Assembly (NCBI GenBank): GCA_018696595.1 | Contig: JABHQW010000003.1 | Span: forward strand, 192,001 to 256,000 | Source: Candidatus Woesearchaeota archaeon | GTDB taxonomy: Archaea; Nanobdellota; Nanobdellia; Woesearchaeales; GW2011-AR9 | Direction of reading: 5' to 3' | DNA: 64,000 nucleotides | Shown: positions 5,546 to 7,112 of the stretch, one piece after another | How the letters are laid out: each line of letters starts with the position of its first letter | Position numbering within the stretch: position 1 is the stretch's first letter | Notes under the pieces: model-generated | Databases searched by the model: none | What the model saw: only the letters and a program-made list of their open reading frames with translations | Told to the model about the DNA's origin: nothing | Translations under genes and position numbers: made by a program

Positions 5546-7112
5546 AAGGAGGTGATCCAGCCGTAGGTTCCCCTACGGCTACCTTGTGACGACTTAACCC
5601 ACCTCACCGAATCTGGATTCGATTTAATTAAAAACTAAATCTCACCCAAACCCAATTCGGTTGGTTTGACGGGCGGTGTGTGCAAAGAGCAGGGACATAT
5701 TCACCGGGTCGTGATGAAACCCGATTACTAGGGATTCCGTTGTCATGAGGATGAGTTACAATCCTCAATCTAGACTAAAACGAGGTTTCGAGGTTTAGCT
5801 TCACCTTTCGGTGTCGCATCCCATTGTCCTCGCCATTGTTGCGCGCGTGTAGCCCAGCAGATTCGGAGCATACAGACCTACCGTTGCCCATACCTTCCTC
5901 TGTGTTTCCACAGCAGTCCCCATAATGGGCTCAGTCCTTCTAAAGAAGCTGCTAGCAATTATAGGCATGGGTCTCGCTCGTTACCTCACTTAAGAGGACA
6001 CCTCACGGCACGAGCTGACGGCGGCCATGCACTACCTCTCGGCTCGTTGGGTAAGACATTCAATCTGATCTTCATTCTGCCGTCGCTGCTGGTGAGATTC
6101 TCTGCGTAAAGTTAGATTAAACCGCACGCCGCACCCCTTGTAGTGCTCTCCCGCCAATTCCTTTAAGTTTCAGCCTTGCGACCGTACTCCCCAGGCGGTG
6201 TACTTAATGCCTTCGCTCCGACACGGCACATTCACGAAAAATATGCCACATCTAGTACACAGCGTTTACGGCTAGGACTACTCGGGTCTTTAACTGGATT
6301 TGTTCTCCTGATGCTTATTACTTCTCATTCAGTAGATGTTTAACAAACAAAAAAACAAAAAATAATATCAAAAGATCCAGAATCTAATCCGTTTTGCTCC
6401 CCTAGCTTTCGTTCCTCACCGTCGAACCCGTTCTAGTTAGGCGCCTTCGCCACAGGTGGTCCTCTCGAGATTATAGCATTTTACCGCTCCCTCGAAAATA
6501 CCCCTAACTCCTCCCGGTTCCTAGACAAGCAGTATCTCAAGCACGCCGTTTTGTTAAGCGCAACGATTTCACCCAAGACTGACTTATCCGGCTACGAACG
6601 CTTTAGGCCCAATAAACGTGATTGCCACTTGTGGCGCAGGTGTTACCGCGGCGGCTGGCACCCGTCTTACCCACCACTTATTCGCCAAGCTATTTACACT
6701 TAGCAAAAGCCCATGCAATGCATGAGCACTGGGAGTTCCCTTATCGCACTTCCGTACAGTGTAAAGGTTTCGCGCCTGCTGCACCCCGTAGGGCTAGGGT
6801 CAGTATCTCAGTACCCTTCTCCGGGCTACCGCTCTCACGGCCCGTACTGATCAAAGGTTTGGTAGTCCTTTACACTACCAACAGCCTAATCAGCCGCCAA
6901 CTCATCCTTAAGCGTTACCTTTCAATAAGAAAACATTCCAGTTATACTTACCTATCCGGGTTTAGCCTCAGTTTCCCGAGGTTTTCCCAAACTTAAGGGC
7001 AGATTATTGACGTGTTACTGAGCATTCAGCCTGTGCCTCCGAAGAGACCCTCTGACTTGCATGGCTTAGTCGAACTCCCATAGCAGCAATCTCCCGCAGG
7101 ATCAACGGGGAT
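5546..7112 (-). rRNA. rrs: 16S rRNA (ends approximate) with one intron
   Basis: 5' CCGUUGAUCCUGC, 515F site GUGCCAGCCGCCGCGGUAA and 3' anti-SD GAUCACCUCCU all present. Confidence 0.97.
6288..6381 (-). other. 94-nt BHB intron in the 16S h24 (790) loop, between E. coli-equivalent 793/794
   Basis: Interrupts GGAUUAGAU|ACCC; central helix UUAG/UUAA, bulges AU|U and AG|A, intron helix CUGGAU/AUCCAG; no ORF inside. Confidence 0.92.

Follow-up and report, generated by a model that had tools for sequence, protein, structure and literature searches.

The window analyzed here is a 64,000-nucleotide (nt) stretch of the genome of a Candidatus Woesearchaeota archaeon (contig JABHQW010000003.1, positions 192,001 to 256,000), and its minus strand carries an archaeal ribosomal RNA (rRNA) operon in the order 16S, tRNA-Ala(UGC), 23S. 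The 16S, or small-subunit (SSU), rRNA gene lies at 5547-7112 and was identified with cmscan (Rfam RF01959, 1407 bits, model positions 1-1478); the tRNA-Ala(UGC) occupies the 16S-23S spacer at 5429-5504 (ARAGORN and the Rfam tRNA model); and the 23S gene of the same operon spans 2325-5262 (Rfam RF02540, 2607 bits). The excess length of the 16S gene, 1566 nt including the intron described below against a model of 1478 positions, is a single block, which is the only large insertion in the gene. In the cmscan alignment, 96 nt stand against 2 model nt; the block sits in helix 24's apical loop, with GGAUUAGAU before and CCGAGUAGUCC after it. From this block, from direct reading of the sequence, and from comparison with intronless relatives, we delimit a 94-nt intron at 6288-6381 in this loop, the 790 loop. 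We read it as a bulge-helix-bulge (BHB) intron without an open reading frame (ORF), spliced by EndA and RtcB, in the sole 16S gene of a marine Woesearchaeota (DPANN) archaeon, and we put the probability of this reading at roughly 88%.

Read along the minus strand, as are all intron coordinates below unless stated otherwise, exon 1 ends in ...AAAACGGAUUAGAU (closing GGAUUAGAU) at 6382 and exon 2 starts with ACCCGAGUAGUCC (ACCCGAG) at 6287. The insertion falls on the bond U793/A794 in Escherichia coli numbering, as placed by the coordinates of the 806R primer (E. coli 787-806). The exon-1 strand UUAG (6384-6387) can pair with the intron strand UUAA (6290-6293) through U-A, U-A, A-U, and G-U to give a 4-bp central helix. 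Around this helix, on opposite strands and at the exon-intron junctions, lie two 3-nt bulges: A-U/U on the 5' side (6381-6383; A6383-U6382/U6381), with a predicted cut at 6382/6381, and A-G/A on the 3' side (6287-6289; A6289-G6288/A6287), with a predicted cut at 6288/6287. Both predicted cuts fall at the equivalent position, after nucleotide 2 of the bulge, and ligation would restore GAUACCC. Helices flank the motif on either side. The inner intron helix, h', consists of six contiguous pairs between CUGGAU (6375-6380) and AUCCAG (6294-6299), seen in both fold and alignment, and the outer helix, h, is a 3-bp pairing of CGG (6389-6391) with CCG in exon 2 (6283-6285), which is the native top stem of helix 24 and appears in the minimum free energy (MFE) fold as well as in the Rfam consensus structure. 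A6388 stands opposite C6286 as a mismatch beside this outer helix. When the intron is removed in silico at both predicted cuts, the product reads GGAUUAGAUACCC (GGAUUAGAUACCCGAG), identical to intronless relatives. The original prediction had described 806R half-sites split by 94 nt, an insertion at 793/794, and a UUAG/UUAA junction with AU/U and AG/A bulges and a CUGGAU/AUCCAG helix; the coordinates and the length hold on the plus strand, the 806R coordinates and the cmscan block bear out the position, and the geometry is confirmed by the sequence, with which 118 listed homologues agree.

The interior of the intron is 72% A+U (28% G+C) and contains no gene, its longest stop-free stretch being 31 codons and too short; a LAGLIDADG ORF, such as longer introns at this site encode, is absent from these 94 nt. 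Both the U/A-rich composition and the lack of an ORF had been anticipated. Beyond the BHB core, the RNA folds as a long, imperfect, A/U-rich hairpin, at the apex of which is the hairpin UGUUU-GUU-AAACA (6337-6349) of the MFE fold, with a UUUG/CAAA counterpart in the consensus of 61 introns.

The identification of the motif draws most of its strength from other archaea. Forty relatives were searched with the 16S sequence, and many alignments break exactly at the intron. In eight relatives from the same order, divergent introns of 93-160 nt occupy the U793/A794 phosphodiester bond, and nine loci among the relatives are uninterrupted, reading GGATTAGATACCCGA. Recognizable homologues of the window's intron occur at this bond in related genomes (for example, L004, L006, L126, and L141), and intron-bearing and intronless states both occur inside the window's own GTDB family. 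The intronless relatives (9 loci; 127 genomes) read GGATTAGATACCCGAGTAGTCC, which is the exact predicted ligation product. Species-representative genomes were then scanned for the junction YTAA, 2 nt, and ACCC..GTAGTCC, which gave at least 118 contigs, with carrier taxa taken as given by the contig titles. Together, the scan matches and the relatives found earlier make up a set of at least 118 distinct introns at 793/794, of 20-745 nt (median 105), each with an inner helix, YUAA, and 2 nt. The site had been proposed for a survey in DPANN 16S genes, and the set extends to DPANN and other archaea alike.

The inner helix is particularly informative, as it lies outside the search pattern. Over 118 introns, it averages 6.1 contiguous pairs; the controls reach 0.1-0.75 when the register is shifted and 1.3 when the partners are shuffled. 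In an alignment of 61 introns, pair 1 is CG in 31 and UA in 30; pair 2 is CG in 26, GC in 18, UA in 8, and AU in 5; pair 3 is AU in 31 and GC in 25; and pair 4 is GC in 29 and AU in 26, with at most three broken. The covariation is strong and indicates that this helix is kept as a structure, not as a sequence. The 5' bulge is AU/A in 97, AU/U in 17, and AU/C in 4 of the 118 homologues listed, and the central-helix partner is CUAA in 113 of the 118, which gives a perfect 4 bp, at a position selected by the search pattern. Because 118 distinct introns at the same site share this geometry, the BHB goes beyond chance.

The host encodes the enzymes that such an intron would need. In the genome (1.19 Mb, 8 contigs, 97% complete), this 16S gene is the sole SSU match. 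EndA is present as a 207-residue protein with PF01974 and PF02778, that is, one N-terminal and one catalytic domain, as in an alpha-type unit, and the ligase RtcB is present with a profile match of 560 bits. The single-unit alpha EndA is described as the type with strict BHB requirements (PMC5829648), and the BHB motif of this intron is canonical. We note that the RtcB gene (contig C6:188854-190164, L002) lies about 2 kb before the start of the window, and only some 4 kb separate it from the rRNA operon with the intron; the closeness is probably a coincidence.

Most of the public runs in which the stretch occurs are metagenomes from marine or seawater samples, and contigs of one DNA run and three metatranscriptome runs (two studies) were placed on 5400-7300. 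In the DNA run, a 165-nt contig at a depth of 17 spans the whole intron with 0 mismatches. In the three metatranscriptomes, contigs of at least 99% identity cover the exons, in places over 200-210 nt without a single mismatch, and depth over 6296-6359 is zero at the contig level. One RNA contig, at a depth of 1048, joins 6287 to 6382 with exactly 94 nt skipped, and in a second RNA run, a loose contig end runs from 6382 into exon 2.

Taken together, these observations suggest the following course of events. In the pre-rRNA, the exon-1 UUAG would pair with the intron's 3'-terminal UUAA, between the native CGG/CCG stem and the 6-bp intron helix. EndA would then cut after the second nucleotide of each bulge, RtcB would join the exons to give GGAUUAGAU-ACCCGAG, and the 94-nt intron would probably be circularized by RtcB as well.

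Several points weigh against this assignment. Conservation of the YUAA element among the homologues is not independent evidence, since the search pattern required it. The 4-bp central helix is absent from the unconstrained MFE fold, which forms the outer CGG/CCG and inner helices and leaves an 8x8 internal loop at the 4-bp helix and bulges; the BHB-constrained fold has -22.1 versus -25.9 kcal/mol, a cost of 3.8. The whole segment folds with z = -1.8 relative to shuffles, the outer helix is only 3 bp and lies next to the A.C mismatch, and the central helix contains a G-U pair that is G-C in most homologues. With 6 and with 61 sequences alike, RNAalifold recovered the inner helix; the 4-bp helix is missing from its result, which favors GGAUUA/UAGUCC as the outer pairing. 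An open central helix in the MFE is expected of a motif that is read by a protein, and folding energy alone is weak evidence; thermodynamics alone would not have found the BHB, and it is the comparative data that identify the motif. As for the RNA, a spliced junction in transcripts had been named as a check; contigs without the intron and one exact 94-nt joint stand, at the level of assembled contigs and not of reads, with only 20 nt on the shorter side of the joint. The DNA run has this joined sequence as well, at a depth of 30. Intronless relatives thus share the sample and could supply the RNA joint. A retained intron would show the DNA's 17:30 ratio in the RNA, and as this ratio is not seen, removal of the intron from the rRNA is likely. 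Ligation of the exons is probable rather than proven. The 790 loop is functionally critical, and the suggestion that splicing is probably obligatory finds support in the sole SSU gene of a 97%-complete genome, the presence of EndA and RtcB, the intron-free RNA contigs, and the sequence of the intronless relatives.

The joint leads directly to the question of whether the two exons are reconnected at all. Some bacterial rRNAs stay fragmented after intervening-sequence removal, and the 94 nt might likewise be excised at the BHB without religation, leaving a 16S rRNA in two pieces held by base pairing. The junction contig could stem from intronless relatives, whose joined form is in the DNA run, and the evidence for ligation in this organism is at the contig level. 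We nonetheless consider a permanently broken 16S rRNA improbable, as the genome encodes RtcB, which ligates EndA products, the RNA contig joins across the site at a depth similar to that of neighboring exon contigs, a break at U793/A794 would fall in the critical loop, and all studied archaeal BHB rRNA introns are ligated (PMC4496867, PMC7714728). That the insertion is instead kept in the mature 16S rRNA, where it would form an expansion segment within the 790 loop, is very improbable. Contigs cannot prove absence, and an assembly would drop rare unspliced molecules; however, intron depth is zero in three RNA runs in which the flanking exon contigs of this organism reach depths of hundreds, while the DNA run covers the intron. 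BHB geometry and covariation suit a splice signal and not an expansion segment, and about two-thirds of the relatives with the region assembled have no insertion.

We give next to no credence to an assembly chimera or to a self-splicing group I or group II intron. The assembly is of the metagenome type, in 8 contigs, which keeps a chimera, the artifact raised by the original prediction, in view; against it, the public 165-nt DNA contig crosses both junctions without a mismatch, and recognizably homologous introns occupy this bond in relatives. The run in question may be the source sample of the genome. For a ribozyme, 94 nt is far too short, and an Rfam search of 6100-6600 at E up to 1 matched SSU rRNA and nothing else, while a scan of the whole window found no family in the intron. 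An intron removed by EndA at the BHB, with its exons joined by RtcB, remains the reading that we prefer.

The mechanism is of a known kind. BHB introns in 16S genes are known from Thermoproteales, Desulfurococcales, and Aigarchaeota, including short, ORF-less ones and ones that interrupt primer sites (Jay and Inskeep 2015, PMC4496867). As in those cases, the window's intron would be protein-spliced, has its BHB core at the junctions, and lies in a highly conserved 16S loop; both sets include introns with LAGLIDADG homing endonucleases as well as short ones that lack an ORF, and just as their locus 803 interrupts Arc806R, the window's intron breaks a "universal" primer site. The hosts differ, the present one being a mesophilic, AT-rich, marine DPANN archaeon with an intron of 28% G+C against their mean of 57%. 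The DPANN assignment of the host had been proposed beforehand and agrees with the contigs of the same GTDB family, which are named Woesearchaeota. The position differs as well. The published catalogue lists 13 16S loci, namely, 374, 548, 722, 781, 803, 901, 908, 919, 978, 1093, 1205, 1213, and 1391 (PMC4496867), among which 793/794 is not found, the nearest being 781 and 803. We considered whether locus 781 is the same site renumbered; this is probably not so, as the primer table puts 781 upstream of 789 and no Thermoproteales-titled contig matched the junction pattern, although Caldarchaeum does have a 743-nt intron at 793/794.

Other comparisons point the same way. The 3-4-3 geometry, the equivalent cuts in both bulges, and a central helix in which the last bases of exon 1 pair with the 3' end of the intron are shared with archaeal pre-tRNA introns, which are of hBHBh' form, cut by EndA, and joined by RtcB; the rRNA host, the outer helix supplied by native helix 24, and a length greater than that of most tRNA introns are not. 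Insertions and group I or II introns in the rRNA of the candidate phyla radiation (PMC11270868) and group I introns in DPANN (PMC6125680) likewise occur in ultrasmall, uncultured hosts, are removed from the transcript, and confound 16S surveys. These are of ribozyme type or of unknown mechanism, in contrast to the window's intron, which has no ribozyme fold and is assigned to protein-spliced BHB introns. BHB introns beside group I introns have been reported in DPANN rRNA (PMC6125680). A 2022 paper attributes 16S insertions only to Crenarchaeota, Aigarchaeota, and Micrarchaeota (PMC8784108), and in genome-resolved studies, DPANN 16S genes with introns receive only a passing mention, insertions of at least 10 bp being stripped before analysis (PMC7906910, PMC5864196). 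No description of a 16S intron at 793/794 was found in the literature searched, subscription papers such as a 2015 Current Biology DPANN study being outside our reach. The site is apparently uncatalogued, and 793/794 appears to be a widely used BHB-intron homing site outside the published archaeal 16S catalogue.

Of 401 genomes sampled from the window's order, 63 have an intron-type junction and 127 an uninterrupted site, which places the intron in about one-third of the Woesearchaeales genomes that have this part of the 16S gene assembled. Among the matches listed, the carriers are mostly Woesearchaeota, Nanoarchaeota, or Nanoarchaeia, with further carriers in Pacearchaeota, Aenigmatarchaeota, Parvarchaeota, the Asgard archaea Hermodarchaeum and Borrarchaeum, Caldarchaeum, and one Nitrososphaerota. 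A second, complete scan limited to ACCCSGG exons added Micrarchaeota and one ANME-1 genome and returned no contig titled Thermoproteales. Many contigs with a Woesearchaeota-type 16S intron bear other titles, including "uncultured Methanosarcinales", Aminicenantes, Yanofskybacteria, Herminiimonas, or "bacterium" (L033, L043, L044, L050-L052, L061, L075, L081, L094, L098, L107, L112, L126, L148, L151, and L162). L112 is the same contig as G014:C3 of the window's own GTDB family, and the titles are likely mislabels or the contigs binning contaminants.

The long introns at this site suggest where the short ones come from. Introns of 589-745 nt in Woesearchaeota, Nanoarchaeota, Aenigmatarchaeota, and Caldarchaeum contain LAGLIDADG_3 ORFs (E values of 1e-10 to 4e-18). 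The window's intron shares with them (L067 and L105, Woesearchaeota; L128, Caldarchaeum; L091; L037) the insertion bond and the BHB ends; it differs in being 94 nt without an ORF, and beyond the BHB core no similarity is apparent by eye. Its most likely origin is as the shrunken descendant of a mobile intron with a LAGLIDADG homing endonuclease, whereby such an intron would home into 793/794 across Archaea, lose its endonuclease, shrink to about 100 nt, and finally be reduced to hairpins of 20-50 nt. With regard to horizontal transfer of the mini-introns, intron and exon identity were compared across 2485 pairs; in some pairs, the identity of the introns equals or exceeds that of the exons, a comparison in which the flanks may hold other insertions and the AT-rich baseline is high. 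A search of the genome for a second copy of the intron gave only short, low-complexity matches. Minimal introns at the same site measure 20 nt (L138), 23 nt (L055), 30 nt (L047), 31 nt (L086 and L038), and 32 nt (L034); these 20-32-nt forms, on contigs labeled Aenigmatarchaeota, Asgard, and Nitrososphaerota, consist of the BHB core, a short hairpin, and hardly anything else.

One interior element of the mid-sized introns drew our attention. In the window's intron, an unpaired CUACU (6331-6335) lies just 3' of the apical hairpin in the MFE fold and is complementary to AGUAG of exon 2 (6277-6281). Over 89 introns of 60-220 nt, the interior words most enriched are CUACU (31 versus 5.2 expected), ACUAC (34 versus 6.6), and ACUACU (18 versus 1.7). 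Words of this family fall in mid-intron, directly 3' of a small apical hairpin, and 26 of 46 MFE folds leave them unpaired; the 61-intron alignment shows no variation at the U of the motif and at least 90% conservation of the A after it. The exon-2 AGUAG(U), which is Watson-Crick complementary to (A)CUAC(U), is located 5-10 nt downstream of the 3' splice site. The intron interior is enriched in complementarity to exon 2 (4.71 versus 4.20, standard deviation 0.15) but not to exon 1 (4.38 versus 4.48 in shuffles). A tentative explanation, on balance doubtful, is that the introns of about 100 nt at 793/794 may be a conserved RNA module and not decayed junk, in which the (A)CUAC(U) loop would pair with the exon-2 AGUAG(U). 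Shared ancestry of the introns could also be the source of the conservation, and covariation cannot test the pairing because exon 2 is invariant. If such pairing does take place, it could delay folding of the lower helix-24 stem or present the weak 3-bp outer helix to EndA, and formation of the 790 loop, and hence 30S maturation, would be tied to the tRNA-splicing machinery in about one-third of Woesearchaeales. The words CUGA and UGAGA, which lie close to the CUACU, were also considered as box C/D-like elements; this was rejected by eye, as the spacing is incompatible with a K-loop and there is no terminal C/D pair.

Most introns of about 105 nt also share an internal GGAAUUAG-UCUCG block (61-intron alignment; for example, L005, L049, L088, and L099), which the window's intron does not have. 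Its AAUUAG perfectly complements the intron's own 3' end, CUAAUU, and can therefore compete with UUAG of exon 1 in forming the central BHB helix, which points to a different fold of the excised intron or to a duplication relic.

Two further observations concern the rest of the operon. One DNA contig of a public run skips 34 nt in the A/T-rich spacer between the 3' end of the 16S gene and the tRNA-Ala (joint 5504 to 5539; region 5505-5539), which is probably a length variant of a related population. In the 23S gene, a 33-nt insertion at 2733-2765 on the minus strand interrupts the conserved GAGUUCAU/AUCGAC loop (35 nt versus 2 in cmscan). Its ends can form GUUC/GAAU with AU/A and AG/A bulges and an internal hairpin, and it looks like a second BHB mini-intron of the same operon.

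The splicing mechanism itself is ordinary. On the plus strand, the 5' thirteen bases of the 806R site, GGACTACTCGGGT, lie at 6275-6287, and the displaced 3' seven bases, ATCTAAT, at 6382-6388; the 515F site, the complement of GTGCCAGCCGCCGCGGTAA, is intact at 6643-6661, as seen in the sequence and the cmscan alignment. On the unspliced gene, the 13 5' bases of 806R match, and its last seven (WTCTAAT) face CTTTAAC, with 3 mismatches that include the 3'-terminal base. From these matches, it is reasonable to expect that the gene would amplify poorly with 515F/806R; flanking primers would give a product 94 bp longer. The intron thus splits the 806R/805R/785F target, the most used site of 16S surveys, in the only rRNA gene of this organism, and the same target is split in about one-third of the Woesearchaeales with the region assembled and in several other archaeal phyla. 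The introns at 793/794, from 745-nt endonuclease forms to 20-nt hairpins, also make up a clean data set for the decay of mobile rRNA introns. For the lineages that carry it, the intron offers a sequence-level reason why V4 amplicons would under-count them, and it also accounts for the way in which 16S pipelines that strip insertions conceal the intron itself.

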